NCBI GenBank assembly: GCA_963754945.1
Contig: CAVWIG010000031.1
Location: forward strand, 1-64,000
Length of the DNA: 64,000 nucleotides
Source: Methanotrichaceae archaeon
GTDB lineage: Archaea; Halobacteriota; Methanosarcinia; Methanotrichales; Methanotrichaceae
Reading direction: 5' to 3'
Under the pieces are notes generated by a model that was not told the origin of the DNA, did no database searches, and saw only the letters and a program-made list of their open reading frames with translations. Position 1 is the first letter of the stretch, and every line of letters starts with the position of its first letter. Below, one piece after another: positions 13,572 through 57,514 of the stretch. The translations under genes were made by a program, and so were the position numbers.

Positions 13572-14783
13572 TCATATGATCCATCTACAGGGAACTTCAA
13601 ATAAACCCCAGTTCCTTCCATTTGGCAAAACATCGAACGAGTATTTCCTATCCAGCCAATCATATGTTTCGCCTTCGCGAGAGTACACTCCGGCGGTCAG
13701 GAAAAAACGCCCATATAACATTGGAAGTCTCTCTATTTCCAGATCTATGCATCCATCGTTTTCTACTTCATCGATTTTGATCCCTTTCAGGTCGCTTGTA
13801 GTTCCATAGAGTTGGAGTCCCTTCTCTGAGTAAAGTGCAATCCAAAATATAGGATCAATAACCTTAGACTTGGCTAAGTAATGAATTCTAATTCTCATGG
13901 GATCAAAAGATGCAAACCTTTTCCCTGCTGCACCATATTTATCAAGAAGTTCGACTTCTCTTATAGCTAAGTTGTCTCCCCCTCGGTTTGGGTTCTCGGC
14001 TGCAAGATTATTTTCTTGAGAAATTTCTTTATTTTCTTGGAAAATCTCGTGGGCTTCCTTTTTGTAGCCGTAGATATACTTGTCCAGTATCTCTCCTGTC
14101 TCACCTATCGCCATCTGTTTCCCATTGCTCAGAAGCAAGGTTCTATCGCAAAATCGCCTCACAGCGGAAAGATCATGAGAGACGAGGAGGATTATCACAC
14201 CTTCTTTCCTGTAGCGATTGAATATGTCAAAGCACTTCTGCTGGAACTCCATATCTCCTACAGCTAGAACCTCATCCACTAGTAAAACATCTGGATCAGT
14301 CTGAATCGCTGTGGAGAAGGCCAGACGGACCTGCATCCCGGAGGATAGATTCTTCAGCTTGGTATCCTTGAACTTCTCCAAACCAGCGAATTCTATAGCT
14401 TCTTCGGTGCTTTGTTTGATCTCCTTCCTGGAAAGCCCCATGACGGTGGCATACACTCCAACGTTCTCCCTCACCGTGAGGTCCGGCTGGAAGCCTACGC
14501 CTAGTTCCAGGAATGGCGTAATTTTGCCATTAACTCTGACCGTCCCCTTGGTAGGCCTGAGGATGTTTGCTATGATCTTGAGCAGTGTGCTTTTGCCAGA
14601 ACCGTTGTCCCCTATTATGCCAATGCATTCGCCCTCATCCACCTTGAAGTTTACATCCTTTAATACAGTGAAAGTTTCGTATTGCCTGGGCTTCATCAAG
14701 CCGACCAGGTTCTCGAAAAGTGTCGTCCTCTTCTCGTGAGGAATCTGGAATGTCTTCCATAGGTGCTCGACTTGAACGGCCAT
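13572..14783 (-). CDS. wzt: Polysaccharide ABC exporter ATPase with Wzt_C domain
   Basis: GDNGSGKST, LSSGM and VDEVLAVGD; C-terminal beta domain; TAATG coupling to wzm. Confidence 0.93.
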   Translation of the reverse strand: MAVQVEHLWKTFQIPHEKRTTLFENLVGLMKPRQYETFTVLKDVNFKVDEGECIGIIGDNGSGKSTLLKIIANILRPTKGTVRVNGKITPFLELGVGFQPDLTVRENVGVYATVMGLSRKEIKQSTEEAIEFAGLEKFKDTKLKNLSSGMQVRLAFSTAIQTDPDVLLVDEVLAVGDMEFQQKCFDIFNRYRKEGVIILLVSHDLSAVRRFCDRTLLLSNGKQMAIGETGEILDKYIYGYKKEAHEIFQENKEISQENNLAAENPNRGGDNLAIREVELLDKYGAAGKRFASFDPMRIRIHYLAKSKVIDPIFWIALYSEKGLQLYGTTSDLKGIKIDEVENDGCIDLEIERLPMLYGRFFLTAGVYSREGETYDWLDRKYSFDVLPNGRNWGLFEVPCRWII

Positions 14784-15565
14784 TAGATCGCCTCTGCAAA
14801 TTTGGGCTCCAGTCGGTCGAAGATAGCATAGCCTAGCAGAAGCAAAGCCAGCGCGCATATGGCAACATATGCCAGATTCAAAGGATCTGGGGCGATCCTG
14901 TACAGGGTGCAGTCCCGCATCATGGTTATGATCTGTGCCATGGGATTGAGCATCACTATCCAGCGTATTTTTTCAGGAAATATAGTTATGGGGTATAATA
15001 TTGGGGTGGCAAAGAACCCCACCTGGACTGTAAGCCGCCAGATGAACTGGACGTCTCTGAAGTACACATTGAGAGCGGATAAGGCCATCGATAGACCCAG
15101 AATTATGAGAAACTCGAATACGAACAGGATCGGGAAGTACGCTAAAGTAATTCCTGGCACGACCCTGAATACCGCCATGAAGATTACGAATACTACAAAC
15201 TCCAGCGCCGTCATCATCAGCGCCGTAATACAGGTGGCTATCACGAGAATATCCCTGGGAAAGTAGACTTTCTGCACCAGGCTCGGCTTCCCCACGATGC
15301 CCCAGATGCTCATGGACGTTCCTCTGTCCAGGAAGTTCCAGAGTACGATTCCCAGGAGCAGGAAGAGCTGGTAGTGCTCCACTTGGATGCGCATGAGGTT
15401 GCTGAAGACGACATAGAGGACCAGGAGCATAAGCAGCGGCTCCAATAGTGACCAGAAGAAGCCCAGCGCTGAGCTTTTATAGCGCAGCTTGAAGTCGCTC
15501 CAGGCCAGCCTGATTATTAGATCCTTATATCCAGCCAGTTCACGAAGGTGACTTGAAGTTAACAA
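14783..15565 (-). CDS. wzm: Polysaccharide ABC exporter permease
   Basis: DFKLRYKSSALGFFWSLLEP, KVYFPR, FRDV and TPILYP motifs. Confidence 0.93.
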   Translation of the reverse strand: MLTSSHLRELAGYKDLIIRLAWSDFKLRYKSSALGFFWSLLEPLLMLLVLYVVFSNLMRIQVEHYQLFLLLGIVLWNFLDRGTSMSIWGIVGKPSLVQKVYFPRDILVIATCITALMMTALEFVVFVIFMAVFRVVPGITLAYFPILFVFEFLIILGLSMALSALNVYFRDVQFIWRLTVQVGFFATPILYPITIFPEKIRWIVMLNPMAQIITMMRDCTLYRIAPDPLNLAYVAICALALLLLGYAIFDRLEPKFAEAI

Positions 15566-40344: not shown

Positions 40345-40959
40345 TCAGCTAAGGTCGGGGAAATCAAATTGCTCCGGCACGAAGTTAGAGGCCCCAGCTT
40401 CGTATAGGTCCAGCTCGAAGATGGAGTATTCGATATCCGTTTCATTCTCTGTCGTCTGAAAGACCAAAGAAGGGTTGTAACGGTAGTAACCCAGGACGCT
40501 GCGGAACTTTCTTGCCTGGGCATCCCATAGATTGCCCACTGTAAAGTAGAGGCCGTAGCTACCGTCCTCTATTTTGTTGATCTTGTAGGAGTCTTTGGAG
40601 CGGATATAAACGGCCAGGATTGGCTTCACCTTGCTGTCGGTCAGCACAGCTACGGTGTCCATGGTCCAGTTGTTGTGTATCATGAGTTCACCGTAGCCGT
40701 TCCTGGCAAAGTCCTTGATGAGGGTGCCTGTCTCTGGACGGGCAATGGGTTGCGAAATCGCTGTGGAACATAAGAGAAAAAGCACAAATGCGATGCACAT
40801 GACAAGACATGCGTGGGCAACTGTTTCCTGCCAAAGGTGGGTCCAAAATGAAGAGAATCGCGATGGCAAAAGATTGGTCCAAGAAGACAGGTCAAGTCGC
40901 CCTTCAACCTGCATTGAGAAGATATCAGCGTTATCTGGAAGATCATATGTTGGCAGCAT
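40345..40959 (-). CDS. Secreted hypothetical protein, the integration target, with an element-derived N-terminus
   Basis: Signal-like hydrophobic segment followed by RPETGTLI..GELMIHN; contains the left repeat; start uncertain. Confidence 0.75.
   Translation of the reverse strand: MLPTYDLPDNADIFSMQVEGRLDLSSWTNLLPSRFSSFWTHLWQETVAHACLVMCIAFVLFLLCSTAISQPIARPETGTLIKDFARNGYGELMIHNNWTMDTVAVLTDSKVKPILAVYIRSKDSYKINKIEDGSYGLYFTVGNLWDAQARKFRSVLGYYRYNPSLVFQTTENETDIEYSIFELDLYEAGASNFVPEQFDFPDLS
40654..40737. repeat. Left att direct repeat (84 bp)
   Basis: GGTGTCCATGG...GTCTCTGG, identical to 57170-57253. Confidence 0.93.
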
Positions 40960-41723
40960 CTACAATTGAAAGCTACTTAAATAGAGTTAAGCTTTTTCTT
41001 CAGTGGGCAGAAACAGATAAACCATCAACCAACCAGTTTGAGAGCTATCGCGAAGTACTTCGCAAGAAGAACACACTAAGCTCTTACAATAACTGCTGCT
41101 GGTCTATTAAGCACTACTTCGCAATGAATAACCAGGTTGTCACCTTTAAGTGTGTCAAACCTAAGGACACTATTCCTTATTGGTTTGATGAAAATGATAT
41201 CATAAAGATATTTTCAGTAGTAAATAATGTCAAGCACTACGCTATGCTACAAGTGGCCTTCTTTGCCAGCCTGAGAGCAACAGAAGTCTGTGATCTAGAT
41301 ATAGAAGACATCAACCTTCAGGATCTGAGTGTAAGAATCAAGTCTGGTAAAGGTCGCAAACCAGCTCTGCTCTATATAAATGATGAGTGTGCTCAAGCAC
41401 TTCGCCAGTATCTAAGTGTCAGGCAGGAAATAACAATTGACAACAGGAGACCATTATTCACCACAGACTACAACCAGAGATATGATCACAGGAGTTTTTA
41501 TCAGGTATTCATGCGCTACAAGAAGTTAGCTGGCATAGAAAAGAAAGGAGCACTACATGTGTTTGCCAGACACTCATTTGGTAGCCTACTCATCAAACGA
41601 GGTTGCGATATCCTGACAACAAAAGAGTTAATGCGCCACAATGATGTCCACACCACAATGAGGTACTTACATATATCTGATACAGTCAAGCGAGAGAAGT
41701 ATGAAAAATACTTAACTATCTAA
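40848..41723 (+). CDS. Tyrosine recombinase/integrase
   Basis: LRATE (R), GKG (K), HVFARH, MRH and TMRY catalytic set. Confidence 0.95.
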   Translation: MKRIAMAKDWSKKTGQVALQPALRRYQRYLEDHMLAASTIESYLNRVKLFLQWAETDKPSTNQFESYREVLRKKNTLSSYNNCCWSIKHYFAMNNQVVTFKCVKPKDTIPYWFDENDIIKIFSVVNNVKHYAMLQVAFFASLRATEVCDLDIEDINLQDLSVRIKSGKGRKPALLYINDECAQALRQYLSVRQEITIDNRRPLFTTDYNQRYDHRSFYQVFMRYKKLAGIEKKGALHVFARHSFGSLLIKRGCDILTTKELMRHNDVHTTMRYLHISDTVKREKYEKYLTI

Positions 41724-42103
41724 CTCATTTCAAGAACGTCAAATTAGCATGAGAAGTTCTGTCATGTTAGCAGGTTGAGCTACCTGAACCAATAAATTTA
41801 TCTGTAGTTTAAAGAATAATCCTAAACTAAATGAGGGCAATTTTCTTAGTTCAACAAGTAGTTAGTAATATCTGGAGTGTTGTTAGTATAATTTTGGGCC
41901 CTTTGCTGGGTGCCTCTGTTGGTGTGTACTTAGGATTCTGGAAAAATCGTATGCACCAAAAAGAGCAAGATCACGATAAGAAACTGTTTTTATTGAGTTC
42001 TTTAAGACATGATGTAAGGAAAAGCATTGAACTTTTACATGAAAAGCATAGGAAAATAATTCCTGTAGATGCATGGAACTCGATTGTAAACTCAGGTAAC
42101 ATA

Positions 42104-43388
42104 GAGGGTTTCGATTTAGTGTTGGTTAATGAAGCCTTAAATTCTTGCGTTAATATTTTCAATCTTTATAGTGGTTTTTTAGCATATTTCACCCCTAAAT
42201 TGGCTTATTAGATTTCAATTTACCTTGTTGTTTCTAATTTTTGCGCTTTTTTAGAGAGCTTCCGCTAGGCTGTTTGTTTATGCACTAAATATTTCAACTG
42301 TTCCAGGTTGTAAACGACCGAATTCATCATGAATTTTACTCCAGCTCTTGCGACAGTTGTTACATAAACATGTGCTCCCTTATGCCCCCGCTTCATAACA
42401 GCGAAGCATCTTTCGATGTGCGATCGCGTTTTACTGATTCTCTTATTCCTCAGAAGATCTATGATTCCAAGCTTGTGACCTCTTGTAGCTTTTTTCATGG
42501 CTGCATCATATCCTCGAGTTTTTGCACCATCATATCCCTTATCGGCGTAACGTGGTAGCCCTTCAATTCCAAGATCTACCTGACTATCGTGTACAGAAGC
42601 AGTTGTAGTCTCAAAATATCTGATAAGGTGGTAATTGGTATCGATTGAGATATGACCTTTATATCCGAAAAAGGATTTGACACCCTTTTTTGCCCAACTT
42701 CCCTCATTTATTGGCTCTTCTTCGAGTCTCTGTGGTTTGGCCTTGTCATCAATAATATTATTTGAAATACCAATTAGCTCTTTATCAAACTCCTGATTCA
42801 GGCTCGTACTGGTGGCTTCGGAATCTTGACCTTCCTTTTTGTCCCCGCCTTGCTCGTCTTTCTTGTTCCTCTTCCGACCTGGGTCCGAAGTTATGAAGGT
42901 TGCATCCTGGATAGTGCCATTCTTTACAGTAAACCCCATCTCATCGAGCTGCCTTTGAAGCTCATTCCAAAGATCATCGTATACGTCGCACTTAATCAAA
43001 CGTTCACGGAATAGCCAAACTGTGCTGAAATCAGGAATTACTTCAGTGGTGCCAAGGAAAATACGAAAAGAGATCCTATCCGCAACCTGTCGCTCCAGTT
43101 CTGGATCTGTTAGACCAAACCAATGCTGAATTACGAGAGCTTTCACCATAATCACGATGTCAATGTTCGGACGACCTCCGCGGCTAGTTTTATTTTTGTA
43201 TATCAATGGTTCCAAAAATCTGAAACGCTCCCAATTGATCAACGATCCGATCTCGGATAGATCATCTCCGAGGGCTTTTACTCGAGCATATTCTGCTCGA
43301 ATGGCAAAATCAATGAGAGTCCTCATGCATTATATTATAGTATTAATAGTATATAAGTATTTCGATTGATTAGTTTTTCGAAACTCTC
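42104..43388 (-). mobile_element. IS5-family insertion sequence (1285 bp)
   Basis: TIR GAGGGTTTCGA/TCGAAACTCTC; 4-bp duplication CATA. Confidence 0.92.
42265..43326 (-). CDS. IS5-family DDE transposase
   Basis: GGRP, PDFST..FRERL, QDATF, GYKGH, ADKGY and RSHIERCF motifs. Confidence 0.93.
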   Translation of the reverse strand: MRTLIDFAIRAEYARVKALGDDLSEIGSLINWERFRFLEPLIYKNKTSRGGRPNIDIVIMVKALVIQHWFGLTDPELERQVADRISFRIFLGTTEVIPDFSTVWLFRERLIKCDVYDDLWNELQRQLDEMGFTVKNGTIQDATFITSDPGRKRNKKDEQGGDKKEGQDSEATSTSLNQEFDKELIGISNNIIDDKAKPQRLEEEPINEGSWAKKGVKSFFGYKGHISIDTNYHLIRYFETTTASVHDSQVDLGIEGLPRYADKGYDGAKTRGYDAAMKKATRGHKLGIIDLLRNKRISKTRSHIERCFAVMKRGHKGAHVYVTTVARAGVKFMMNSVVYNLEQLKYLVHKQTA

Positions 43389-43859
43389 CATAGTGCTTTT
43401 CAATCATGATCAAGCCATCGTTTTAAGTGATATCTACTTTAAAATACAGAATTATAATTTGGAAGCAAAAAGAACTAGGGATACATTGGAACATTTCGCT
43501 TCACTACCAGATGGGGTACCATTATACCCAGCTGCTTTGCAGGACCAAGCAAAATATGAAAGCGCAAAGGAACGTTTTGAAACGCTCGATAAGGTTTTGA
43601 CGATCCTCACGGAATCACTAGAAAAAGAGTTAATTGAACTTGAAAGCATAAATTGGTTCAAGGACAGATAATGTCTCTTTGAAAGCGTTGCCAAACTTAT
43701 TGACAAACTGATGTGTTCCTGTGGCTAGTTTATATACTAGAGCAAGCTTGATGGCTTGGTAAAAGGTCTGTGGCTTTGCCGTTATCGATCCAAAGTTCGC
43801 TTTTGTATTGTAAGCGAACTTCATTTTTAAGCGTAATTTTATAAAATAATCAATATGGG

Positions 43860-44970
43860 TGCTTGAGCGTGATACACTGTGACATACAAGTACTGAATGC
43901 TGTAACTTATCACTATTCAAACTATATAGATAAAATCGCAAGAATAATAAGGCTATGACACAATGTAGCACACTGAAGTATGAGCAATTATCCCAATTCA
44001 ATACAATTGGTAATATCCCGCAACATGCAACAGTTACAGTGTTCGCAGAAATGATTTTGACAAACCAACAGTAGCCAACAAGAAATAAGCATCTTTCTAA
44101 TCCTCTTGCGAGAGGGAAAGATGCTTTAAGTGACTGCATAGCAGCAAATGACGATCGATCTATCAGTCATGCAATGACAGCTTCCTTCATCCAAGGAAGC
44201 ACGCTAACATACTTAGTTTTCATCAATTTATGCCATACGGGGGTTATTTTTATTAATAATGTTATTTGCTCCATTAATTTGCATCCTGACAGACAAATGG
44301 GGGGGGGGGTAAGTAAGTGTGTGCGACACACTCTAATCTCATTCCCCTCATGGCATTCCCCCGGCTGGTAAACTGAGTTAGAAGGCAGGCGCTGCCTTGC
44401 ATACCCCCCCCCCGCTTGTCAGACAGGTTGCAAATTCAGGTTGTGAATCCAAGTCTGGGATACTGTTGTTGGTTGTTAAATAGAACTAGGAAAGTTTACA
44501 AATTGGTGGAGCACCGGAGTTTTGCAGCTTTAAATGCCAAATATAAAAATAACCCCCGTATGGCAGAAGCGTAAAATAGCCAGCAATTTGTAAAGAATTT
44601 TTACTGCTATCGATTTTATACAATTTCAAAACTAATGGAACAGCAGCAGCTGACCATTTCAGAGATGCAGGACACGCCATTTTTGGGTTTACAGATATTG
44701 AATTTTCGATTTTGTATCGCATCTCTTCTGTACTCCTCTCCTTCTTTAATTACTCTATAGACAACTCTCTTTAGATAATAGATGTATAATAGATACGATA
44801 CAAATGGGGGTGAATCAGTAACGGTGAGGCCAAAATTCGCGTGTCTCGAATGTACCCAATGTGGCGACTGATAGTGTATCGCCTGATTTGGGGTTGCTAA
44901 AATCGGGTCGTCTGATAGCCTACCCCATTTGAGTTGCTCCTTGGAGATTGGGCAGAAAAGAGGCATGAAC
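43860..44970 (+). ncRNA. Candidate large structured RNA or folded ssDNA region
   Basis: Many 8-35-bp stems, including a perfect 23-bp inverted repeat (44231-44253/44543-44565). Most wobbles are G-T on the plus strand. No convincing ORF. Confidence 0.45.
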
Positions 44971-45297
44971 CAAAAGCTTTAAATAGTAGACATTATTATA
45001 CGCTATAGACGATAAAAATTATTAATTTATCCTCTATAGACGATACAATTGTCCATTTGTATTAAGCATTTATATATAATTGGATTTCCGATCGGTGATT
45101 TTCATAAATGGTTGATATTAAAATGAATCGTTATGCCAAAAGGCGATCGGTGGGGTAAAAAGGGCGAAATTATGGTTGTGAAAATTAATATTCATTTGGT
45201 TATTATAAGATTGAATGAATTGAAATAAAAAATGATAAAAAAAGCAAAGAAATGATAAAAAATTTGGTATTTTGTGGCCAATCTTCAATATTCTATC

Positions 45298-45573
45298 TCA
45301 TGGAGATCTACTATGTTTTCGATACTTTTTGATGAGTTCCAAGATTTGTTGTGCCTTTTTTTCCTCTTCTGGCGTATCTGGAGTTTGCTTCAGCCTGCGC
45401 TCATATTCGTTTACCGCCGCATCGATTTCCTCTTGGTTGCCGCTACGTTCAGCAGAATGAATCTTAGCCAAACTAGTGATTATGTCCAAGACGCACAGTG
45501 GTTTAGGTTGACCTTTATCTTCCAACTCGTCTGTTCTTTTCTGCACTTTTTTAATTTCTTCTTCTATTTTCAT
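45298..45573 (-). CDS. Hypothetical helical protein
   Basis: ATGA coupling to the upstream gene. Confidence 0.7.
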   Translation of the reverse strand: MKIEEEIKKVQKRTDELEDKGQPKPLCVLDIITSLAKIHSAERSGNQEEIDAAVNEYERRLKQTPDTPEEEKKAQQILELIKKYRKHSRSP

Positions 45574-45803
45574 GATTTTACACCTTCCATCTTATCCAAC
45601 CTTGTTTTTATCTCTTCCAGGACTGGAGCTAGATCTTCTTTGGTTGCAGTTTCGTATGCTTTCAACCATACACTCGCTATCTGAAATATCTTGCCTGAAT
45701 GTTCAACCTGCTTGCCCTCTTGTATGATATCACTGATGACATCGCCTAAGATTCGCATCAAGTCTTTTGGAGTTTTCAATGTAACTCCTCTCGTTTTTGT
45801 CAT
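45570..45803 (-). CDS. Hypothetical helical protein
   Basis: GGTGAT RBS; C-terminal coiled coil. Confidence 0.75.
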   Translation of the reverse strand: MTKTRGVTLKTPKDLMRILGDVISDIIQEGKQVEHSGKIFQIASVWLKAYETATKEDLAPVLEEIKTRLDKMEGVKS

Positions 45804-45832
45804 TATTAATCACCTTATTTGATTAAGGTCCT

Positions 45833-45899
45833 CTAGTCTAACAATTGCTATGGACCAGCCATTAGTCCATGCCTACGACTTCAGTCGTAGGTTGTTGAC
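45833..45899 (-). repeat. Solo IS200/IS605 end resembling the 5' domain of HEARO/omegaRNA
   Basis: GTCAACAA-CCTACGAC-TGAA-GTCGTAGG-ATGGAC..GTCCAT-TTGTTAGACTAG. Confidence 0.6.
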
Positions 45900-45963
45900 C
45901 TATATACTTTGCGACAGTTTCCATATGCTGTGCTTCATTCACTAATTAGAATAAAAATAAACT

Positions 45964-46149
45964 CTATTCAAGATCCATTCCTGTCATGCTGTCCAAGAGT
46001 CTAATCACCTCTTCTCGCGTATGGTATTTTTCCAAAAAGATATCCAGAACATGGGCATCTGAAATTTGTCTCTCTCTCGTTATTCTTGCAAGCTCATTGT
46101 AATCTATATTAGTCTCTGCTTTACTTATTCTACTTATGATTCCTTTCAT
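45964..46149 (-). CDS. Hypothetical protein
   Basis: GGTGA RBS; part of the operon. Confidence 0.65.
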   Translation of the reverse strand: MKGIISRISKAETNIDYNELARITRERQISDAHVLDIFLEKYHTREEVIRLLDSMTGMDLE

Positions 46150-46155
46150 TATTAT

Positions 46156-46347
46156 TCACCTTACATAATATATTCCTTTGCCATTCATGAGTGCAGAAAT
46201 TTCGTAACGAGTTATGCCAGCTCTGCAATCTGGACTAATCCAAAGATGGCCCAAAGCGTCTGCAAAAGGATGAGCAGGATTATATCCCACTCCATTATAC
46301 TTGCCATTACTATGGGAGCAGCCACAAATGCAGCAAACAATTGCCAT
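46156..46347 (-). CDS. Small Cys-containing hypothetical protein
   Basis: CCICGC motif; operon spacing. Confidence 0.6.
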   Translation of the reverse strand: MAIVCCICGCSHSNGKYNGVGYNPAHPFADALGHLWISPDCRAGITRYEISALMNGKGIYYVR

Positions 46348-46349
46348 GT

Positions 46350-46712
46350 TCAGGTCTCCAAATTTACAAAAGTGCTCAATGTACCATTCATCCCAGGTGC
46401 AGCAGGCTTAACCCAGACTTGGATTGCTGCAAACACTCCCTCAACTGGTATATCCAAAGCCGGAGCACCTGCTGTTAGCGAAAATTCCGGAACTGCTATC
46501 TCACTATACATCCCATTGCCAATATCTCCTCGAATCACAACAAGAAGGTCATTTCCTGTGCACGAAAGTACCAGTTTTTTGCGCTTTGCAATGAGCACAG
46601 GCAAGGAGCAAACTATAGCATATTCATCTTGTACTGTGACAAAATCTGGGATATAGCCCATCTGTGCAAAATGAGAACCTAATATTATGTCTTCTATAGT
46701 CAAGTTACTCAC
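46350..46712 (-). CDS. Hypothetical beta-rich protein
   Basis: Alternating hydrophobic strands; overlaps the upstream gene. Confidence 0.65.
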   Translation of the reverse strand: MSNLTIEDIILGSHFAQMGYIPDFVTVQDEYAIVCSLPVLIAKRKKLVLSCTGNDLLVVIRGDIGNGMYSEIAVPEFSLTAGAPALDIPVEGVFAAIQVWVKPAAPGMNGTLSTFVNLET

Positions 46713-46887
46713 CTTTTGCGTGAATATCCTCTAATCTAACTGACCATGATGCCTTTTTCTTTCCTGCTTTAAACATTGGCACACGCGATTGAACTAATGA
46801 CGCTATCATAGCATCAACATCAATTTCGTGCCATGCTGCTAAATCTACTATTCTTATTATTCCTGAACTTGGTAAAATTGCTGACAT
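46705..46887 (-). CDS. Xis/AlpA-like helix-turn-helix protein
   Basis: RIVDLAAW..VPMFKAG..WSVRLEDI resembles the HTH_17 pattern; GAGGT RBS. Confidence 0.5.
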   Translation of the reverse strand: MSAILPSSGIIRIVDLAAWHEIDVDAMIASLVQSRVPMFKAGKKKASWSVRLEDIHAKGE

Positions 46888-46914
46888 AATTTCAACCTCA
46901 TATTAAAAGAGTAT

Positions 46915-47271
46915 TCAAATGGTATTCAAATAGGTCTCAACAGGATACATCTGGGTATCCAAATAGGTGCTTTTTTCTGAGTTCGTATGATTGGACGTTC
47001 CCCAATGAAAACTCTCAAATGTCTGGTCTAAAATGGCAGAATCTACATCATTGCTAAGATAGGGTAATGTCATGTAGTACTCGCTTGGATTTGTAGTATT
47101 TTTGCGCCGCTCCAACAGGAAACTAATTATCTTGTCATATGGTCTAGACCAAAGATCTGAAGGCCATTGACTGAAGAATCCTGTCCATCCTTTCTTAGAT
47201 ACTCTTAATCTCCATTTTTTTATAATTAGATTCTCATCCAATACTTTCAAAACAAAAACAGTATACATCAT
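46915..47271 (-). CDS. Hypothetical protein
   Basis: 118-aa ORF in the operon. Confidence 0.6.
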   Translation of the reverse strand: MMYTVFVLKVLDENLIIKKWRLRVSKKGWTGFFSQWPSDLWSRPYDKIISFLLERRKNTTNPSEYYMTLPYLSNDVDSAILDQTFESFHWGTSNHTNSEKSTYLDTQMYPVETYLNTI

Positions 47272-47372
47272 AAAAATGTCTCCTTGACTTCCTTGTTCTT
47301 CTTGCTGTTTGGCTGTATTTTCTTAGAATATATATTTCGTATTTTATAATTTTTTCTGCCCAATCTTCTCAT
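47268..47372 (-). CDS. 34-aa highly basic peptide (not in ORF track)
   Basis: MRRLGRKNYKIRNIYSKKIQPNSKKNKEVKETFL; GAGGT RBS; stop overlaps the next ATG (ATGA). Confidence 0.5.
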   Translation of the reverse strand: MRRLGRKNYKIRNIYSKKIQPNSKKNKEVKETFL

Positions 47373-47410
47373 GATAGTTAACCTCTTGCGTTTTTCTAAC
47401 TGCTATTCCT

Positions 47411-47575
47411 GCCGGCCTATTCTAACGAGAAAGGCCGGCTTGGAACCTATCCTCACTGTGAGGCAGTGATGCAGATCCTGGTATTTGCCCACCTCAGAGG
47501 TTCCATAATTAACTACCTCACCGTGAGGTAGTTTTCCCGTTGCTGGTTAGCGTCACTGTGGCGCTCCGGCTGGGA
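47411..47575 (+). ncRNA. Candidate structured RNA or ssDNA multi-hairpin
   Basis: Four consecutive domains including a three-way junction; three G-T wobbles all on the plus strand. Confidence 0.5.
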
Positions 47576-47803
47576 TGATGCCTCAGGAACTCGTGTAGTG
47601 ACCAAGGCTAGACTTTAATTTATTTAAGCTACAATATATTTCCTTGCTAGATATTTTGGGCCTTAAAACTCACTACAATGGCTCCTCTCATTCTCATAAA
47701 GTATAAGAAAGCAAGCCTTATCTGGTATGCTTAGTGTCAATCGCTATCTGCTGGAGCTTCATAACACTATATCAGTGCAAGAATATGATGCGCGTGTGCT
47801 ACA

Positions 47804-48034: not shown

Positions 48035-48267
48035 TACCGTAGTAGTTTAATTTAAATGTCCCCATGCTTGGTTCCTATTTTCTCGTGTTCAAATTAGATG
48101 TCACAACATTCAATCTCACCAAAAACGTTGCAAATGCATATAGAGCATCGACCAATTCTCTTACGAGAGGGTCGATGCTTTTAAGCGACTGCATAGCAGC
48201 AGATGACGATGAATGCATCCATCCTGTCCTGTTGGACATCCTTCCACTGCGAGTGAAGGATGTATAC

Positions 48268-49143
48268 TCAATCTGGAAGTAGTATCAACTTCTTATGATT
48301 GTAGCTACACAAGACATTTGACTTCTTCCTCTTGCCGTCTGCTATACCTTTGGCAACAGTTGCCTTGCATTTATCATGACTCAAACCCACTGACTGACCA
48401 GCTAACTCCAATTCCATTGTGGCAGAATTTTCATTTATATGATCAATTATCATACCAACCTTGAATGATTTAGTGATCAGCGTCTGAGTTCTGTTACCTT
48501 TATGAGATGACCTGATATCTGATAGTGCATTCCTTAAACACGTTTTTCCATAATTGCACTCATGGGATTCATACTGTCTGACAAACGGGGGGGGAGTGTT
48601 ATGCTGCGACGGCGCAGCTTTATAAAATTGTGCTAATACTCCGGTCCCGTCTGAGATTGCTGTGTTATAACCTGGTAGTGGGAGCCCTGTAAATGTTACG
48701 AAATTGTTACCGGGTGTTATGATTTCTAATGATTGATCATCACCAATTACTGTATTGAGTTTTTTGCAGTCAGGTAGATATGCCTTGCAAATTGCATGTA
48801 TGCCGTTCATTGAAGGCGAGTACTCACAATAAGCATTAAGGTCACTGACTATTGAACTAGCAGCAGGATTCAGGTCACCATTTTGATCAAAACAATCATC
48901 AAGATCTATCACAACGTAAGGTCTTTGGACTATAAATCCAATTCCTGCTAAACCTGGAGTGTGTTTCTGAAGTCCTGCTGCTCCATCAAATGTCATAAAT
49001 AAAGAATGGTCACTCCATTTGGCGTATCGCTTACCATCTAAACTGGGTTTCTTTCCTCCAGTGGTTCCTTTCATCCACGGTATCCAAATCTTTAAATCTT
49101 TAAGTTCTACCAGATATTCACTAAGTTTTATATTATTAAACAT
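48268..49143 (-). CDS. AEP-family primase-polymerase (Prim-Pol)
   Basis: GIGF, VIDLDD and EYSPSMNGIH motifs; helical PriCT-like C-terminus. Confidence 0.85.
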   Translation of the reverse strand: MFNNIKLSEYLVELKDLKIWIPWMKGTTGGKKPSLDGKRYAKWSDHSLFMTFDGAAGLQKHTPGLAGIGFIVQRPYVVIDLDDCFDQNGDLNPAASSIVSDLNAYCEYSPSMNGIHAICKAYLPDCKKLNTVIGDDQSLEIITPGNNFVTFTGLPLPGYNTAISDGTGVLAQFYKAAPSQHNTPPPFVRQYESHECNYGKTCLRNALSDIRSSHKGNRTQTLITKSFKVGMIIDHINENSATMELELAGQSVGLSHDKCKATVAKGIADGKRKKSNVLCSYNHKKLILLPD

Positions 49144-49280
49144 ATTTTGGGTCTCCTTGTTTTAAACTAAGTTAATGACTATGCTCAGCCTGTTGGCTTC
49201 GCTTTGGTTCAGACTGCTCCGTAGCAGGCTTCTATCACCCCCCCCGTTTGTCTGATGGGGTTGCGACATTTGGAGTGGGG

Positions 49281-49504
49281 AGTTACACTTATGTTACATT
49301 TGAGGTTACACTTTGAGTTGTGCTCACTGGTATTGAAAGTTACGGTTGTTACAATATTTTCCTGGTTTTGTGTTTCTTTCCTATAGATTATTTTTTGTAA
49401 AGATAATATTTTTGATTAAAAAGTGTAACAAGTGTAACTTTAGGTATGCAGAGGCTGTTTTCAATGTGTAACTTAAGTGTAACTTAAGTGTAACAAGTGT
49501 AACT
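49281..49504. other. Putative iteron origin of replication
   Basis: Five GTTAC(A) copies, an AT-rich spacer, then six inverted (A)GTGTAAC copies, directly after the helicase stop. Confidence 0.8.
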
Positions 49505-49512
49505 TTCATTGC

Positions 49513-51000
49513 CTATTGAATCAATTCCTTTGACAGTTGCAATATTGTGATATCATAATCAGCCTTATTAAATGTCAATCCTGGAAATCCTCTTACTGTT
49601 TTATCCTCAACCTTCAATGTGCTATCCTTAACCTTCAATTTGCCTACCATTGGTTTTCTACCTAACAACGTTGTGATTAGATGTCTGAATCTGTACCTAT
49701 TTTCAAGGTTACCCCCGGTTAGGTTCGCCCATTCTGTAAATTTCTCAAATAATTCAGTTGTTGATATATTCATATCATAACCGTCATCGTCGCAAAATAA
49801 CTCGAAGAAGGTTGTAACTGAATTTATTAGAGTTTCTTCATCTTCTTCTTCTTGCTCAGGATGTCTATCTGGTATCTTGCCTAAAGCTATTATACCTGGC
49901 ATTCTTTTAGCAATTATATTTAGCAGACCAGATAGTTCTTCCGGAGTGGTCATCTTTTCTAAGATTTTGGGATCATCCTGGCGTTGGTTGAGTTTGGATG
50001 AGTCTACACTGGACACGAATTTGTAAGGTAAGAATGTCTTTCTGTATCTTCTCTTGAACCCATACGAGGCATCAGCGAATTTTGGAATACTGTTGCCTTT
50101 GAATAACATCTTGGTGAACGGTAAGTATCTGCACCTGTTCTTCTCATACTTTACATCACTTGATATTCTGTCCCCTCCGGAGATCTCCTTTATCTTACCT
50201 GTTCCTGAAGCATTGACTGATTCAACTTCATTCACTATAGAGAACCTAGCGTTTTCTAAGTTGCTTAATGCAAATCTGCCTTCAGAAACTTCTCTTAATG
50301 ATAGGCCTTCGATTGATTTTGCACCATAAAATTTCTCTATAAGGTGAACATATTGGCTTGATCCCGTAGAACCATGGCCTATTATGAAACCTATGAACAT
50401 CAGCGCCTTTCTATATGCACCTGAAGCTAAGATATCAAACAGCGTCTCATGGTCTGCTTCAATAGGCGTAATGGAATTGATGAACTTGCTAATCTCTGGA
50501 CAGGTTGCATCTGGGTTATAAGTGACAGGTATAGGATCTGTGATATAATCTTCTTTCTTGTAATCTCTGAAGGTTCCCGTATCAAGTTCCAATACTCCGT
50601 TTTGACAACCTAATAGATTTGGATATGGATCAAATATAACAGGATGCAACGATAGTTCAATTCTGATCAATGCTAATACCTCTGATCTGGCGTATTTTAA
50701 CGCCTTATCTCCAACTGCATTCTTTAAGAAAAATTCAATAATCTGTACACCATTTTTCCTGTAAATCTTGCCATCAAATATATAAATCGTTTCATCATTT
50801 TCACGCATAGCAAGAGTGCATTTCTCTAATATCGCGTTGGCTGCTTTGGTTGGGCTTAGTTTCATAATTTCCTTTCCTGTATCCTTATCAAATTTTCCTG
50901 TGCCATATAGTAATTCATCTGTGGTTATATTAGGCAATACAGGTAATACAGTGCTATTAATTTCTGTTGTTATATTATTATTGCTAGACATATAATTCAT
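49513..51000 (-). CDS. P4/D5-like SF3 helicase (D5_N + ATPase)
   Basis: LLGCQNGVLEL and YNPDATCP; degenerate Walker A GHGSTGSS; IVNEV and KEISGGDRI motifs. Confidence 0.9.
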   Translation of the reverse strand: MNYMSSNNNITTEINSTVLPVLPNITTDELLYGTGKFDKDTGKEIMKLSPTKAANAILEKCTLAMRENDETIYIFDGKIYRKNGVQIIEFFLKNAVGDKALKYARSEVLALIRIELSLHPVIFDPYPNLLGCQNGVLELDTGTFRDYKKEDYITDPIPVTYNPDATCPEISKFINSITPIEADHETLFDILASGAYRKALMFIGFIIGHGSTGSSQYVHLIEKFYGAKSIEGLSLREVSEGRFALSNLENARFSIVNEVESVNASGTGKIKEISGGDRISSDVKYEKNRCRYLPFTKMLFKGNSIPKFADASYGFKRRYRKTFLPYKFVSSVDSSKLNQRQDDPKILEKMTTPEELSGLLNIIAKRMPGIIALGKIPDRHPEQEEEDEETLINSVTTFFELFCDDDGYDMNISTTELFEKFTEWANLTGGNLENRYRFRHLITTLLGRKPMVGKLKVKDSTLKVEDKTVRGFPGLTFNKADYDITILQLSKELIQ

Positions 51001-52909: not shown

Positions 52910-53383
52910 TTTTAATCACCTTAATTAATCACTTGTTAATATTCAAACTTTAAAAAAAGACATTCAACACAACGAAAAGAAAAGAATTAAAAAGATGTAA
53001 CTCTTTCACTTCTATTCCTCTTCTCAATTATAGCAACACCACTTTTCGCTATGCGATGGCATCGATATGCAGTGGCATTATGAAAAGTCACCAATATCAG
53101 TAGCCATTTTATAACGATTAATCATTGGAATATATTAGATGCTTGCCATTTTTCCAAAATCCATTAATCTGGGCCCATTTTGTAATAAGTAACACTGTTA
53201 TAGTTGCAATTCCCGGTATTCATATTCGAAGACTAATGGGGGGGGCCAAGATGTGCTCCTTTTTATATTATATACTGAATAGCAGCATAACAATAACCCC
53301 CCGTTTGTCTGCCAATGGTAGCAATGATGAATGAAGAAATATTATTTCAAGGTAGTAATAATAGTGGCAAAAAAATAACGCGA

Positions 53384-55540
53384 TTAAAGCTTCAAGGTTA
53401 ATGGAGGGAATAGAGCTTTGATCGCATCAACGCTGGTCCTGTCCTTTTTGGTCATGGAATATTTCTTGGACTGGATAGCTTCATTGGTTTTCAGGCTGCT
53501 TTTGACCTGGCGTTTACTGAGTGTCATACCATAGAGTTGATAGTAGACCTGGATTAAGCAAGGCAAGTTAGCGTTTAACTGTAGCATTTGGTATTGTTCA
53601 TAGAGAGTCATTGGTTTACCTGGAGGTGGGTCCCCTTTTTTGTACCGGGGTTTGACTCCTATCTGGGTTGGCACATCAGAAGTTACTTCGAAATCCTTAG
53701 GTACAATCAATAACCCATCCATTCCTTGCAATTTGGGTAATGGAACGTCCTGAGCAAACACAAGGCTATAGAATGTATCCTGACCTGATAAGAGTAGATC
53801 GATGACCCTGGTAATCTTCCAAGTTACCTCAAACATCCTGATTTTATGGTCCCGATGGCGCAACTTGGCATCCTTGTAATATGTGGTGTTAGACACTGGT
53901 TTGTTATCAGTGTACTCCTTTAGTACATCATCACTAAGTTTAATATCGTCATCATGGGTAGGTATGTCCTTTTTATCATCCTCTAGAATTTCATCCTCAA
54001 TTTTATCAATCTCAGATGGTTTGGCTGATGGAAATACGCCTGTGACTCGTTGATATTTGGACCTGGGAATATGTAATGGCAGTGCGCACTTCAGGCGGCA
54101 ATTATCCTTGAATTCTAATTTGAGATGGCTTCCTTTGAAACCTGAAACTGTTTCGTCTCGTGTGTGGCAGTCGTCACCTGTTTGGTCTTTAGGAGATTTA
54201 CAATTGGAGCAGTCAGCTTTGGTCCAACGATTGTTATTCCAAATTTGGCATGGACCTATGTAGTATTTCAGTGAGTACTCGTATTCCTGGTGCTTATGTT
54301 TGGCGTTAAATTCGTTGATGATCATTAATTCAGTTTGAATGTTGTAAGATTGGTGCATTCCTCCATTGGTAGCCTTTACTCTTACCTGTCCTGGGAATGA
54401 GTAGTTGATCTTGTTTTTGTTCCCCACTGTATCCTCGCTGGTTATAGGCGTTTTGGCGCTCCATTTAGTAGATTCCTGGACGTAGTGATGATAAGGTGGC
54501 TCACCTGTTGCTTCATCATACTTCGTGAGTTTTTGTTTAAGCTTTGATATATCGCACCCCATGCGATACACCTTGTGATGAACTGGATGAATTAAACGGG
54601 AATCGTTATCGTAGATTAGACAAATGTGTTCAGGTCTACTATCAACGATATAGCACCTACCACGATCAAACCTGCGTATTTCCTGTAGTTCACTATCAAC
54701 ACAATATCCTAGAGCACTATCCTCCTTTTTGGTGTCGTATACCTTTTTTGGGTAGTGGCTTTGTGGGAAAGCAGTTTGGGTATAGAGCAGTTTACCAGTG
54801 TGTTTACCTTTGTGCATGTTATTGTCGCTGTAGTGATTGAATCGCCTGAATGGATCGATACACTTAGGCTCAGAATAAGGTGTCCAAACATGGTCAACTA
54901 TCCTGGAAACCAAACCCAGCTTATTAGATTCGCGCCAGATATCAACAGAGCCATTTATATTAATCAAGTGATCCTGGGAATCAGTGAACTCAAACTGGTA
55001 ATCCTTGTTATCCCAATATGCTTCGTACATTTTGGGTGCGACCAGAGGAGTCTGGGATCTGTCCCTGGCATCAGGTATATCAGGTGTTACCTCATCAATA
55101 TGGATTACATTGCAATCATCGACAAGATAGGTGTCCCATATTTTAACGAAATCTCTGGTCAGTTCGTGGTATTTCCTGGGTATATCCTTAGCTGGTTTAG
55201 TATACACGACTTCAAATTCGTGATCACCAAAATCTGTGACTAATTTGAATGCCCTCAGGTTCGCGATTTGTTCGAGATACTCAGTATAAGTGTAGTGTTC
55301 ACGCCTTGGATCAGCAGCTAAGAATACATTAGGTTGTGCGATTGGATTTAGTGGAGCAGAATATACCTTATGCAATTCCTTATTGTAACTATAAGGGGGA
55401 GCTTCATACGAATACTCCTTGTGTTTGCGAACCTGTTTGCTTATAACTTTGCATCCTGCATATTTGTCCCTTATGGCTTGTAACGCTGCAATGACAGCAA
55501 CATCATAATGAGTTACTGCATTGGTATCTGTTACTGTCAT
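53384..55540 (-). CDS. Large orphan protein (718 aa)
   Basis: Long ORF with GAGGTGAT RBS; no motif recognised. Confidence 0.8.
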   Translation of the reverse strand: MTVTDTNAVTHYDVAVIAALQAIRDKYAGCKVISKQVRKHKEYSYEAPPYSYNKELHKVYSAPLNPIAQPNVFLAADPRREHYTYTEYLEQIANLRAFKLVTDFGDHEFEVVYTKPAKDIPRKYHELTRDFVKIWDTYLVDDCNVIHIDEVTPDIPDARDRSQTPLVAPKMYEAYWDNKDYQFEFTDSQDHLININGSVDIWRESNKLGLVSRIVDHVWTPYSEPKCIDPFRRFNHYSDNNMHKGKHTGKLLYTQTAFPQSHYPKKVYDTKKEDSALGYCVDSELQEIRRFDRGRCYIVDSRPEHICLIYDNDSRLIHPVHHKVYRMGCDISKLKQKLTKYDEATGEPPYHHYVQESTKWSAKTPITSEDTVGNKNKINYSFPGQVRVKATNGGMHQSYNIQTELMIINEFNAKHKHQEYEYSLKYYIGPCQIWNNNRWTKADCSNCKSPKDQTGDDCHTRDETVSGFKGSHLKLEFKDNCRLKCALPLHIPRSKYQRVTGVFPSAKPSEIDKIEDEILEDDKKDIPTHDDDIKLSDDVLKEYTDNKPVSNTTYYKDAKLRHRDHKIRMFEVTWKITRVIDLLLSGQDTFYSLVFAQDVPLPKLQGMDGLLIVPKDFEVTSDVPTQIGVKPRYKKGDPPPGKPMTLYEQYQMLQLNANLPCLIQVYYQLYGMTLSKRQVKSSLKTNEAIQSKKYSMTKKDRTSVDAIKALFPPLTLKL

Positions 55541-55829: not shown

Positions 55830-56075
55830 TTAAGGTTTTTGCTTCTCCTTGAGTTTTGCCACAAATAGTGTGCGAATTTCGTTAGGAGTCAATCCTAATT
55901 CGCGAAGTGTTTCAACTGTAGCTGCAACAAAGTCATCTATCTCATCTTTCGTAATGACAGGTTCAACTACTCCGTGTCCCCACTTCCTGCTTTGGCAGTT
56001 GGGACACTTAACTGGACTCTTTATTAATTGAGGCCATTCATACCCACATTTTAAGCACTTATGCTTGGGTATCAT
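55830..56075 (-). CDS. Zinc-ribbon protein
   Basis: CLKCGYEW..PVKCPNCQSRKW. Confidence 0.75.
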   Translation of the reverse strand: MIPKHKCLKCGYEWPQLIKSPVKCPNCQSRKWGHGVVEPVITKDEIDDFVAATVETLRELGLTPNEIRTLFVAKLKEKQKP

Positions 56076-56076
56076 C

Positions 56077-57039
56077 TCATTCGCACTCCTTAATCCACTT
56101 TTCTAGCAACGTTTTCAGTGGTTGGAGACACCTCTCCTTTCTGGGTACTCTCATGAATGGGATGAATGACATCTCTTCTGTTTTAGTTATAGGCTTGACT
56201 CTTGTGCCGTACCATTTCCATTCATTTTTCCACTGCTTCATTAGCTTGGTGTTTTCTACTGCATACTTTCCAGTGGGAACCATTATCTCTTTGGGAACCG
56301 GCAGCTCATGAATCCAGCAACCCCTAACTTTGAGAGGATCATCATCCGGTAGATCATTAGCAACAAACGCTACAATCTCGTTCTTGATACCATTTTTATT
56401 CCAGTAATGTCTGCCTACCCAGTAATCGTCCATCTCGATTCTGAAATCATCATAAGGCTTATCTGGGTTACTCTTGTTATATCGTATTCCGCTAGATTTA
56501 ACCTCAAGCGTGATCACTCGCGATGATTCTACAACCTTAACCATAACAGTGTTTCCCGGTGCTTCTGCTGCTAAATCTGCACCATATCTGAAGATTCTAG
56601 CTGCTTCCTCGCTAAGTTTCTTGCCGCGTTTCCTACGAACCTCATCGTAAAGCTCTTTGCTGAAGTGTATGACATCAGAAGGCGAAGGTTCAGGATATAT
56701 CTCAATTGGGTTTCTAGCGCGCATTAAATTAATTTCAATACCTGTTAAGTAACTTTTGATACCAAGATCAACCAAGATTCTTCTGACAAGTCTAACAGCT
56801 TTCTCGTGATCTGGATCTTCCTTAATGTAATATCCTACAGGTTTTTCCGGAAGTCTGCTCACATAGGTCAGTAGCCTGTGTCCTTTGAAAGTGATAACAG
56901 ACTTACCATCTTCATGCGTTTTCTTACACAGGTGTCTGAGCGTCTCGTATTCACTATCAGTGACATCTATATACACTGGTTCTAGTGTGGCAAACTCGTA
57001 TACTTCTATTTTTACCATCTTTATCATCTCTATTACCAC
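56077..57039 (-). CDS. Hypothetical protein, possible PD-(D/E)xK nuclease
   Basis: HE...GADL...LEVKS spacing. Confidence 0.6.
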   Translation of the reverse strand: MVIEMIKMVKIEVYEFATLEPVYIDVTDSEYETLRHLCKKTHEDGKSVITFKGHRLLTYVSRLPEKPVGYYIKEDPDHEKAVRLVRRILVDLGIKSYLTGIEINLMRARNPIEIYPEPSPSDVIHFSKELYDEVRRKRGKKLSEEAARIFRYGADLAAEAPGNTVMVKVVESSRVITLEVKSSGIRYNKSNPDKPYDDFRIEMDDYWVGRHYWNKNGIKNEIVAFVANDLPDDDPLKVRGCWIHELPVPKEIMVPTGKYAVENTKLMKQWKNEWKWYGTRVKPITKTEEMSFIPFMRVPRKERCLQPLKTLLEKWIKECE

Positions 57040-57109: not shown

Positions 57110-57478
57110 TTATAGTTGGAAAATCTCACTGATACTGAAATGGCAGGATATGCCCATTTTGCGTTGATAGGTGTCCATGGTCCAGTTGTTGTGTATCATG
57201 AGTTCACCGTAGCCGTTCCTGGCAAAGTCCTTGATGAGGGTGCCTGTCTCTGGGCGAAAAGATGGCTGCGATATTGACGTCGAACATAAGATGAAAAGCG
57301 CCAATGCAATGAACAGAATGGGACGTGCCAAAGCAACGGTTTCCGGGAAAAGGTGGCTCAAATATGAAGAGAATCGCGACGACACAGAATTGATCACGGA
57401 AGGCAACTCCAATGGTCGTACAACATGCCTCGCTGAGATTTCGTCGTTACTTGAAAGATCGCGTGTTAGCCCCATCAA
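57110..57478 (-). pseudogene. Displaced 5' part of the target gene
   Basis: Matches 40345-40959 up to NNWTMDT, then runs into element sequence and stops. Confidence 0.75.
57170..57253. repeat. Right att direct repeat (84 bp)
   Basis: Identical to 40654-40737. Confidence 0.93.
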
Positions 57479-57514
57479 CCATTGAAATCTACTTAAATAG
57501 AGTTAAGCTTTTCT
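57364..57514 (+). pseudogene. Relic integrase 5' fragment
   Basis: MKRIATTQN*SRK..RYLKDRVLAPSTIEIYLNRVKLF is collinear with the first ~50 codons of the integrase at 40848. Confidence 0.85.

Follow-up and report, generated by a model that had tools for sequence, protein, structure and literature searches.

According to the sections of the published accounts used here, RSF1010 has iterons that bind RepC and is unwound by RepA (PMC8567376; PMC4234260), and its RepB' primase, which has the archaeo-eukaryotic fold, initiates at ssiA and ssiB, a pair of hairpin-bearing 40-nt inverted repeats on complementary strands (PMC8567376). For replicons of the pRN1 type, which combine a primase-polymerase (prim-pol) with a superfamily 3 (SF3) helicase, the sections used describe a stem-loop 3' of the replication gene, with conserved flanks and a stem that is variable yet paired (PMC4234260). 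Here, we describe a 341-bp nested imperfect palindrome (positions 44228-44568) in an integrated mobile element of about 16.5 kb, which lies within the 64,000-nucleotide stretch of archaeal DNA that was analysed as a whole (contig C31; hereafter the window). The palindrome is the core of a 1.1-kb region (43860-44970) for which a first-pass annotation had proposed a large structured RNA or, alternatively, a folded single-stranded DNA signal. The region is likely to be a cis element that acts as DNA, double- or single-stranded, rather than a functional large RNA. More tentatively, we regard the palindrome as a DNA-level site linked to replication; this is an overall judgement on the statement as a whole, not a product of partial odds, and it stops a little short of an even chance.

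A nested palindrome made of composite repeats

The 341-bp nested palindrome is the only strongly non-random structure in the region, and it occurs as a single copy in the genome. Its outer arms, t1 (44228-44253, plus strand; TTATGCCATACGGGGG followed by the T-rich tail TTATTTTTAT) and t2 (44543-44568, minus strand), are 96% complementary and agree at 25/26 positions. The perfect 23-bp inverted repeat first noticed at 44231-44253/44543-44565 is therefore real and extends to 26 nt with one mismatch. Inside these arms lie two facing repeat copies, m1 (44279-44309, plus strand; a box running to CTGACAGACAAAT and then G11) and m2 (44404-44436, minus strand; a box running to CTGTCTGACAAGC and then G10), which have diverged to 85%. 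They account for the stem first described as about 35 bp and imperfect, which measures 33 nt at 85% (44276-44308/44404-44436) and contains the G11 and C10 runs. The spacer between m1 and m2 (44310-44403) has a GC content of 0.51 and holds two perfect 7-bp hairpins, AGTGTGT-GCG-ACACACT (44316-44332, plus strand), which starts 6 nt past the G-run of m1, and AAGGCAG-CGC-CTGCCTT (44382-44398, minus strand), which starts 5 nt past that of m2.

When both strands were folded against dinucleotide shuffles, the core went far beyond the shuffles, and equally so on both strands. With RNA parameters, 44228-44568 gave -139.5 and -131.1 kcal/mol (z -7.1 on the plus and -8.8 on the minus strand), and with DNA parameters it gave -75.3 kcal/mol on either strand (z -8.6 and -8.4). 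The whole 1111 nt folds at z -6.5 (plus) and -7.4 (minus) against 25 shuffles, with flank values of -2.5/-4.0 on the left and -1.5/-2.4 on the right, and this region-wide score arises because the core supplies the excess structure. In a 240-nt scan of the plus strand of the element, segment 44200-44439 (z -5.4) stands out within the region; segment 44920-45159 reaches z -3.2 and ends beyond it, and the other segments inside it score between -0.7 and -2.1, with one at +2.1. The region thus does not amount to 1.1 kb of densely paired sequence; its non-random structure is limited to the 341 bp and a few hairpins. Comparably structured intergenic gaps are found elsewhere in the element (47200-47680, 48040-48279, 49240-49479 and 55840-56079). 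The first of these gaps, with segment z values of -3.0 to -5.9, carries GC-rich hairpins that share a CAC(C/T)GTG centre (e.g. 47511-47533 and 47452-47465), and also a GCCGGCC hairpin near 47413-47440.

All stems listed at first are present in the inverted-repeat listing at their claimed places, but their meaning is unequal. The longest stem with G-T pairs allowed in 200 dinucleotide shuffles was 19, and only the 23-bp stem exceeds all of them. The 15-bp stem with two G-T pairs (44267-44281/44499-44513) and the one noted as 13 bp with two G-T pairs, which measures 13-14 bp (43894-43907/44032-44045), do exist but are not individually significant, because stems that long are common among the shuffles (at least 15 in 29/200 and at least 13 in 155/200). 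The 13-of-14-bp stem is present as 17 nt at 88% (44711-44727/44788-44804), and an 8-bp hairpin can be read from the sequence at 44180-44200. Two of the pairings are mutually exclusive, because the 5' arm of the 15-bp stem and the m1 arm share 6 nt.

The arms of the palindrome are copies of a composite repeat specific to the element, which consists of a box of 13-26 nt ending in GACAAAY followed by a run of 6-11 G. There are eight clear copies, six of which make three facing pairs (two of them tight), and the other two are the outer arms. Besides m1/m2 and t1/t2, the inward-facing pairs are m3 (48568-48594, plus strand; CTGTCTGACAAAC and G8) with m4 (49238-49264, minus strand; CATCAGACAAAC and G8), and m5 (53219-53245, plus strand; G8) with m6 (53285-53321, minus strand; G6 and TTATTGTTATGC), both of the latter in the gap after a 718-aa open reading frame (ORF). 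The distances within facing pairs range from 47 to 643 nt. The outer arms t1 and t2 (TGCCATACGGGGGTTATTTTTAT) have their tail in common with m6, and a weaker copy, m7 (44793-44810, plus strand; ACGATACAAATGGGGG), overlaps the 3' arm of the 17-nt stem at 44711-44727/44788-44804. In m1-m4, i.e. four of the nine copies scored, the G-run is followed at a distance of 5-10 nt by a short, perfect and GC-rich hairpin with a stem of 5-7 bp (6 bp at 48603-48618 for m3 and 5 bp at 49214-49227 for m4), and the four stem sequences are all different. Perfect hairpins of at least 5 bp, with at least three GC pairs and no more than 32 nt past the G-run, thus accompany 4/9 copies, compared with 2.6% of the 33,938 background windows taken from the element.

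The repeat is also concentrated in the element. GACWARYGGGGG has seven matches in the 2,968,897-base genome, and six of them lie in the element, within 9 kb. The genome has 64 G/C runs of at least 7, five of which are inside the element, each preceded by the box. Among 392 genomes of the class, GACAAAYGGGGGG matches more than once only here (four matches) and once each in 20 others; by our own tally of the table, the reversed control gives a comparable 13 single matches.

A second duplicated structure lies beside the palindrome. Module copy 1 (44087-44200) opens with hairpin A (44087-44126), continues with a conserved block up to position 44155 and closes with the 8-bp hairpin at 44180-44200 (hairpin B). 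Module copy 2 (48144-48263) is directly 3' of the primase stop at 48268 and has hairpin A', the conserved block and hairpin B' (48238-48263); the segment that covers it (48040-48279) folds at z -3.4. Positions 44088-44171 match 48144-48226 at 78% over 85 nt, and a 24-nt block is found exactly twice in the window versus 0 expected. Within the 40-nt hairpin A, consecutive stem pairs are altered on both sides with the pairing kept, three of them by hand alignment and two by the alignment of the tool. In addition, the order of hairpin A, block, hairpin B, a plus-strand copy and a minus-strand copy of the repeat is identical at 44087-44436 and 48144-49264.

The mobile element, its origin candidate and its genes

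The archaeal assembly comprises 2.97 Mb in 54 contigs, is 87.7% complete, and carries mcrA and two cdc6 genes, which are found only on contigs C33 and C30. In the window, G+C falls from 0.51-0.60 to 0.31-0.45 between about 40.8 and 58.5 kb, and a 343-bp direct repeat (40654-40996 versus 57170-57512, 78% identical) bounds the low-GC stretch. The two repeats are probably attachment sites with a duplicated target gene end. The repeat overlaps the 5' part of a host ORF (40345-40959, minus strand) and its partial copy (57110-57478, minus strand). The stretch encodes a tyrosine integrase (40809-41723, plus strand; Pfam 5.8e-27), a 495-aa D5/SF3-type helicase (49513-51000, minus strand; Pfam D5_N 7.6e-17) and a separate 291-aa prim-pol primase (48268-49143, minus strand; PHROG 5.9e-21, PDB primases 2e-12); its remaining small ORFs are many and mostly without a family. 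Integrase, primase, helicase, low GC and direct repeats therefore define the integrated mobile element of about 16.5 kb, and together with the genomic mcrA and cdc6 they bear out the earlier description of an archaeal mobile element.

The palindrome lies in a 1.6-kb gap without a supported gene (43672-45297), where the rightward genes (the integrase and a 183-aa ORF) meet the leftward genes tail to tail. The 183-aa ORF is split into 41831-42103 and 43393-43671 by a 1285-bp insertion of the IS5 family of insertion sequences (42104-43388; DUF772 and DDE_Tnp_1, 353 aa; target duplication CATA). This IS5-family element has at least 44 matching places in its own genome including the one in the window (from the best 40 of 81 candidates), and among the matches listed about 35 are full length and the others partial or fragmentary. 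Terminator-like signals are seen for both gene sets, namely a 10-bp hairpin at 43793-43821 followed by T5 for the plus-strand genes (the signal spans to about 43831) and T6/T7/T6 at 45227-45262 for the minus-strand genes, so the roughly 1.4 kb between them should be cut off from transcription unless promoters exist within it. The right end of the gap is an AT-rich tract (44990-45297, GC 0.27) with direct and inverted copies of CTATAGACGATA(A/C)AA at 44996-45048 (plus strand).

The region was first called ORF-poor. Two sizeable ORFs do exist in it, of 169 aa (43630-44139, minus strand) and 116 aa (44616-44966, minus strand), but neither has a convincing family or homologue: among 5.8 billion proteins, the first matches itself alone and the second has two matches, both short, to tandem-repeat proteins. 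Ten ORFs of the gap gave no convincing match to Pfam and PHROGs, and codon scores are ambiguous. With no supporting protein, Pfam or PHROG match, a conserved ORF was dropped as the explanation of the region.

An iteron-type origin candidate lies directly 3' of the helicase stop (49513), at 49281-49506. It has eight repeats of the AGTGTAACT type at no more than one mismatch, arranged as inverted clusters of two on the minus strand (49281-49312) and six on the plus strand (49422-49504) around an AT-rich spacer (49356-49417, GC 0.21). Between the end of the m4 box and this block there are 16 nt (49265-49280). Across the window, 16 copies of AGTGTAACT were found versus 9.8 expected. Fourteen loci were fetched around helicase homologues of 29-37% identity, and in six of them (L049, L050, L053, L054, L057 and L058) an inverted iteron cluster also lies directly 3' of the primase-helicase gene; the iteron block is therefore a family-typical origin. 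Inverted clusters directly 3' of a replication gene are found at 49281-49506 and not in the 1.1-kb region, and the idea of the palindrome as the main origin was dropped once the iteron block had emerged.

In the present element, separate genes encode helicase and primase, arranged as helicase, origin, primase, whereas in the relatives they are fused or the primase is followed by the helicase. At locus L059, a perfect 30-bp inverted repeat (9210-9239/13029-13058) flanks the helicase segment, which suggests from sequence that the primase-helicase module gets rearranged. The inverted repeats of L059 and L060 were dropped as counterparts of the palindrome, as their contexts are different. Likewise, G-runs were dropped as a common feature of related elements: the 14 loci (about 215 kb) have five runs of at least 8, without the box, which by a rough count is two to three times the genome-wide rate.

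The 291-aa primase matches PHROG primase families, PDB chains titled 'Primase' and standalone homologues of 262-295 aa. Copy m3 is in frame within its linker (residues about 175-192), between the catalytic and C-terminal domains. At this place there is no indel relative to the 35%-identical homologue of L059, and the linker is variable among six homologues. Since m3 is in frame without an indel, a frameshift-prone C8 run and a hairpin are kept inside the gene. The closest primase homologue (P0004; 50-51% identity, 295 aa, encoded on a 36-kb contig) has TNPPPIS in its linker where the m3-encoded NTPPPFVRQ stands, and more distant homologues have no such residues.

Relatives of the element are distant. 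For the helicase, the best identity among 301 genomes of the class was 37%, one distant locus was seen in metagenome_contigs (36% over 76 residues), and viral_contigs gave no match. For the primase, the best identity among 392 genomes of the class was 42%, and the alignment found no match in viral_contigs.

Competing explanations

The rival that survives best, though we consider it unlikely, is that the repeats are duplex binding sites for some other protein of the element (e.g. a repressor, a factor for partition, the centromere or packaging, or a fork barrier), with the palindrome as the largest cluster and the hairpins either incidental or extruded as cruciforms. The boxes of m2 and m3 contain the dyad TGTC-N-GACA, but its left half is not conserved among the copies. 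Sites are seen at operon boundaries, within three of the larger gaps between genes, and further short repeats (CTATAGACGATA and GATACAA) crowd the same gap as the palindrome. The binder could be encoded by one of the small ORFs of the element, most of which belong to no family, but neither a ParA-type nor an Orc1/Cdc6 gene was detected in the element. Duplex binding also leaves unexplained that the hairpins of 4/9 copies vary in sequence and keep their structure. In its layout (dyad, AAAC, G-string) the repeat is similar to archaeal origin recognition box (ORB) elements in the sections used of the account of them (PMC4010727), but the host ORB, CTCCACTGGAAAC...GGGG, differs. Without the ORB consensus, an adjacent cdc6 gene or an AT-rich unwinding spacer, an ORB-type origin was rejected. 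The host chromosomal origin was observed on contig C33 (12830-15490; locus L046) beside cdc6, with ORBs of the form CTCCACTGGAAAC..GGGG at about 12830-12890, 13941-13969 (with a C8 run) and 15470-15490 and long AT-rich stretches between them.

Quite unlikely, in our judgement, is that the region is functionless debris, i.e. either what decay has left of a partial duplication of the primase locus, or nested insertions resembling miniature inverted-repeat transposable elements (MITEs), with t1/t2 and m1/m2 as terminal inverted repeats. The parts stand in the same order as at the primase locus, and the palindrome arms hold short peptide-level echoes of the primase linker (HTPPPLVRQ versus NTPPPFVRQ). 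However, only the motif-bearing pieces are kept, tblastx detected no coding remnant, and m3 did not arise by insertion. Mobile DNA is plentiful in the genome, as its many IS5-family copies show, and terminal inverted repeats are indeed present (t1/t2 at 25/26; m1/m2 as 33 nt at 85%), but no target-site duplication was found: the flanks read ...CATCAAT/GCGTAAA... (or ...AATTTA/GAAGCG...), whereas the insertion at 42104-43388 has CATA. The debris reading also fits poorly with outer arms that are 25/26 identical though m1/m2 stand at 85%, with a core that is single in 2.97 Mb and with a motif that is unrepeated in 391 other genomes of the class.

The reading as structured non-coding RNA, for example transcripts that start from the T-rich tails of t1/t2 and run into the palindrome, we hold to be improbable. 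In its favour, the fold is far better than that of shuffled sequence, the region would need promoters of its own between the two terminator-like signals, and the pairing of hairpin A survives consecutive double changes. The tails TTATTTTTAT(A) after t1/t2 look like candidate TATA boxes of the archaeal type. The proposed RNA would, however, be one without a strand preference in energy, with excess structure over 341 bp only, and with a motif that also lies inside coding sequence and beside the origin iterons. Most wobbles had been said to favour the plus strand, and the count is real (nine plus-strand versus five minus-strand stems of at least 13). It is not diagnostic, because a coding control (53384-54494) is likewise biased (G-T stems of at least 13, 5 versus 0; of at least 11, 22 versus 4) and the energies are equal on both strands; as the control shows the larger bias, this bias was dropped as evidence for RNA, and the number of G-T stems is matched by the control as well.

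Comparison with known RNA families points the same way. Rfam contains the GOLLD and ROOL families, and the first-pass annotation had suggested an archaeal counterpart of these. When 42000-47000 was searched with cmscan against Rfam at E<=1, nothing was found within the region; the sole hit, Acido-Lenti-1 at 45869-45891, is unrelated and weak (21.4 bits versus a gathering score of 37). A group II intron or other known ribozyme was dropped for the same want of an Rfam match. Homologues for a covariation test were not found: the region has no homologue in its own genome, in viral_contigs (searched with a 23-mer) or in the phage or plasmid collections, 60 relatives gave one low-complexity match only, and 34 related loci (288 kb), like the own genome, gave none by blastn or tblastx. 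A 17-mer had 12 single matches in genome_contigs, all in unrelated organisms and at chance level. Among the public sequencing runs matching the element, no RNA run is listed, and four DNA runs from two studies contain nothing but short contigs that match parts of the element identically; these show no joints, leave the palindrome uncovered and have no bearing on expression or inversion. The GOLLD/ROOL proposal therefore finds no support, given the missing Rfam match and homologue, the strand-equal folding and the excess over 341 bp only, and it is further undercut by palindrome arms made of a DNA motif that recurs within a protein gene and next to the iteron block.

A bidirectional transcription terminator or insulator is very improbable: the palindrome does sit between convergent 3' ends, and each outer arm read inward ends T-rich with one terminator-like match (44570-44552, minus strand), but stronger signals lie nearer the gene ends (43793-43828, plus; T6/T7/T6 at 45227-45262, minus), terminator-like sites number one versus a shuffle mean of 1.3, and the copies inside the primase gene are left unexplained.

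A replication-linked reading and known systems

We favour the reading of the palindrome and its sister repeats as DNA-level cis sites tied to replication, for which single-stranded folding is relevant, because the fold is strand-symmetric and copies lie at the origin flank and in the primase gene. The facing pairs, the hairpins that are variable yet paired in 4/9 copies, and the separately encoded primase also argue for cis sites at the DNA level. The alternative offered at first, folded single-stranded DNA that acts as a replication signal, agrees with these data and comes near the best reading, while protein binding, priming and the strand used are points that we infer.

In the mechanism that we envisage, the replication apparatus would consist of the D5/SF3-type helicase, the separate archaeo-eukaryotic prim-pol primase and the iteron origin between their genes. 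After unwinding, each site would offer its box and hairpin on its own strand to the primase, and facing pairs could start two leading strands through each other, as ssiA/ssiB do for RepB' in RSF1010. The palindrome at 44.3 kb would then be a distal facing pair nested in a second facing pair, serving as an auxiliary or second-strand initiation site, and the hairpin module A/B beside it would duplicate the module after the primase gene. By analogy, a priming-site mechanism of this kind is possible but doubtful. It is rather unlikely that the repeats are, more narrowly, sequence-specific initiation sites for a stand-alone archaeal prim-pol primase, analogous to ssiA/ssiB. If they were, the palindrome would be a distal priming station, the primase gene would contain such a site in its own linker, and the invariant GACAAAY-G(n) might serve as the primer (or as the complement of the template), with the G:C run clamping primer to template.

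Several points weigh against the replication-linked reading. First, the family-typical origin at 49.3-49.5 kb is 5 kb off, so the palindrome is not needed for the start of replication, and the 1.1-kb region has one 1-mismatch copy of the iteron AGTGTAACT, at 44032, which is within chance. Second, the repeats themselves are not uniform: m5, m6, m7, t1 and t2 have no perfect GC hairpin, and m3/m4 are 643 nt apart, unlike ssiA/ssiB. Third, none of the 14 loci around helicase homologues shows the composite motif, so the link between split primase and sites is drawn from one element, and no homologue of the region was found in any collection searched. Finally, compensatory changes in DNA palindromes can be produced by template switching without selection, and the 169-aa ORF, with a codon score of 0.187 versus 0.195-0.369 in training genes, could still be an orphan gene.

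The analysis leaves one candidate fewer among giant structured RNAs in archaea. It also gives a testable picture of the cis-acting DNA in a mobile element of an uncultured archaeon, with an iteron origin and a separate system of facing-pair repeats that links the distal palindrome, the origin flank and the primase gene. To our knowledge, the choice of priming sites by archaeal replicons with prim-pol and SF3 helicase is poorly known beyond pRN1. If the proposal is true, a priming signal specific in sequence and structure would be a useful handle for biochemistry and for shuttle vectors in methane-metabolising archaea.

Compared with known systems, the locus has features of several and is identical to none of those considered here. 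Like GOLLD and ROOL, which are RNAs of bacterial prophages, it is a large non-coding stretch in a mobile element with strong predicted pairing, but here it is a symmetric palindrome of repeated DNA motifs without an Rfam match at E<=1. The ssoA-type single-strand origins (sso) of rolling-circle plasmids are long imperfect non-coding palindromes that act as folded single-stranded DNA in one orientation only; the present palindrome differs in being symmetric, and no HUH Rep gene was detected in the element. The lambda origin lies inside the linker of gene O, a replication gene, and m3, which would be a site of origin type, sits comparably in the primase linker. In the sections used of the account of archaeal ORBs, these elements have a dyad-like core with a G-run behind it and are used in inverted orientation (PMC4010727), as in the repeats here, but the core is TGTCTGACAAAC versus CTCCACTGGAAAC in the host, and the spacer, with a GC of 0.51, is not an AT-rich unwinding element. 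Iteron origins 3' of primase-helicase genes in integrated elements have their counterpart in 49281-49506 and in 6/14 relatives; the palindrome itself differs, as it is without these iterons and 5 kb distant.

With pRN1, as far as the sections used describe it (PMC4234260), the element shares the type of replication protein and a small hairpin just after the stop, followed by a stem-loop between conserved flanks. This pattern is seen in module copy 2, which lies 3' of the primase gene, and again in its paralogue within the 1.1-kb region. In pRN1, however, the stem-loop 3' of orf904 is about 100 nt and is described as the origin itself, with no iteron block in those sections (PMC4234260), whereas here hairpin A has 40 nt and an iteron block is present. 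RSF1010 differs in that, in the sections used, its ssi sites are 40 nt long and lie near the iterons (PMC8567376), whereas here one pair is 5 kb from the iterons and the copies are scattered with one intragenic. The ssi sites each have a specific 5' sequence plus a hairpin (PMC8567376); here perfect GC-rich hairpins accompany 4/9 copies, above the 2.6% background. There is also no sequence similarity, the box here carries a run of G6-11, and the pairs are 47-643 nt apart. Both systems, however, have a replicon-encoded archaeo-eukaryotic primase that is separate from the helicase, with iterons at another place in the origin (PMC8567376; PMC4234260), and in both, as far as those sections go, related sites occupy complementary strands and point towards each other within a larger inverted repeat (PMC8567376).

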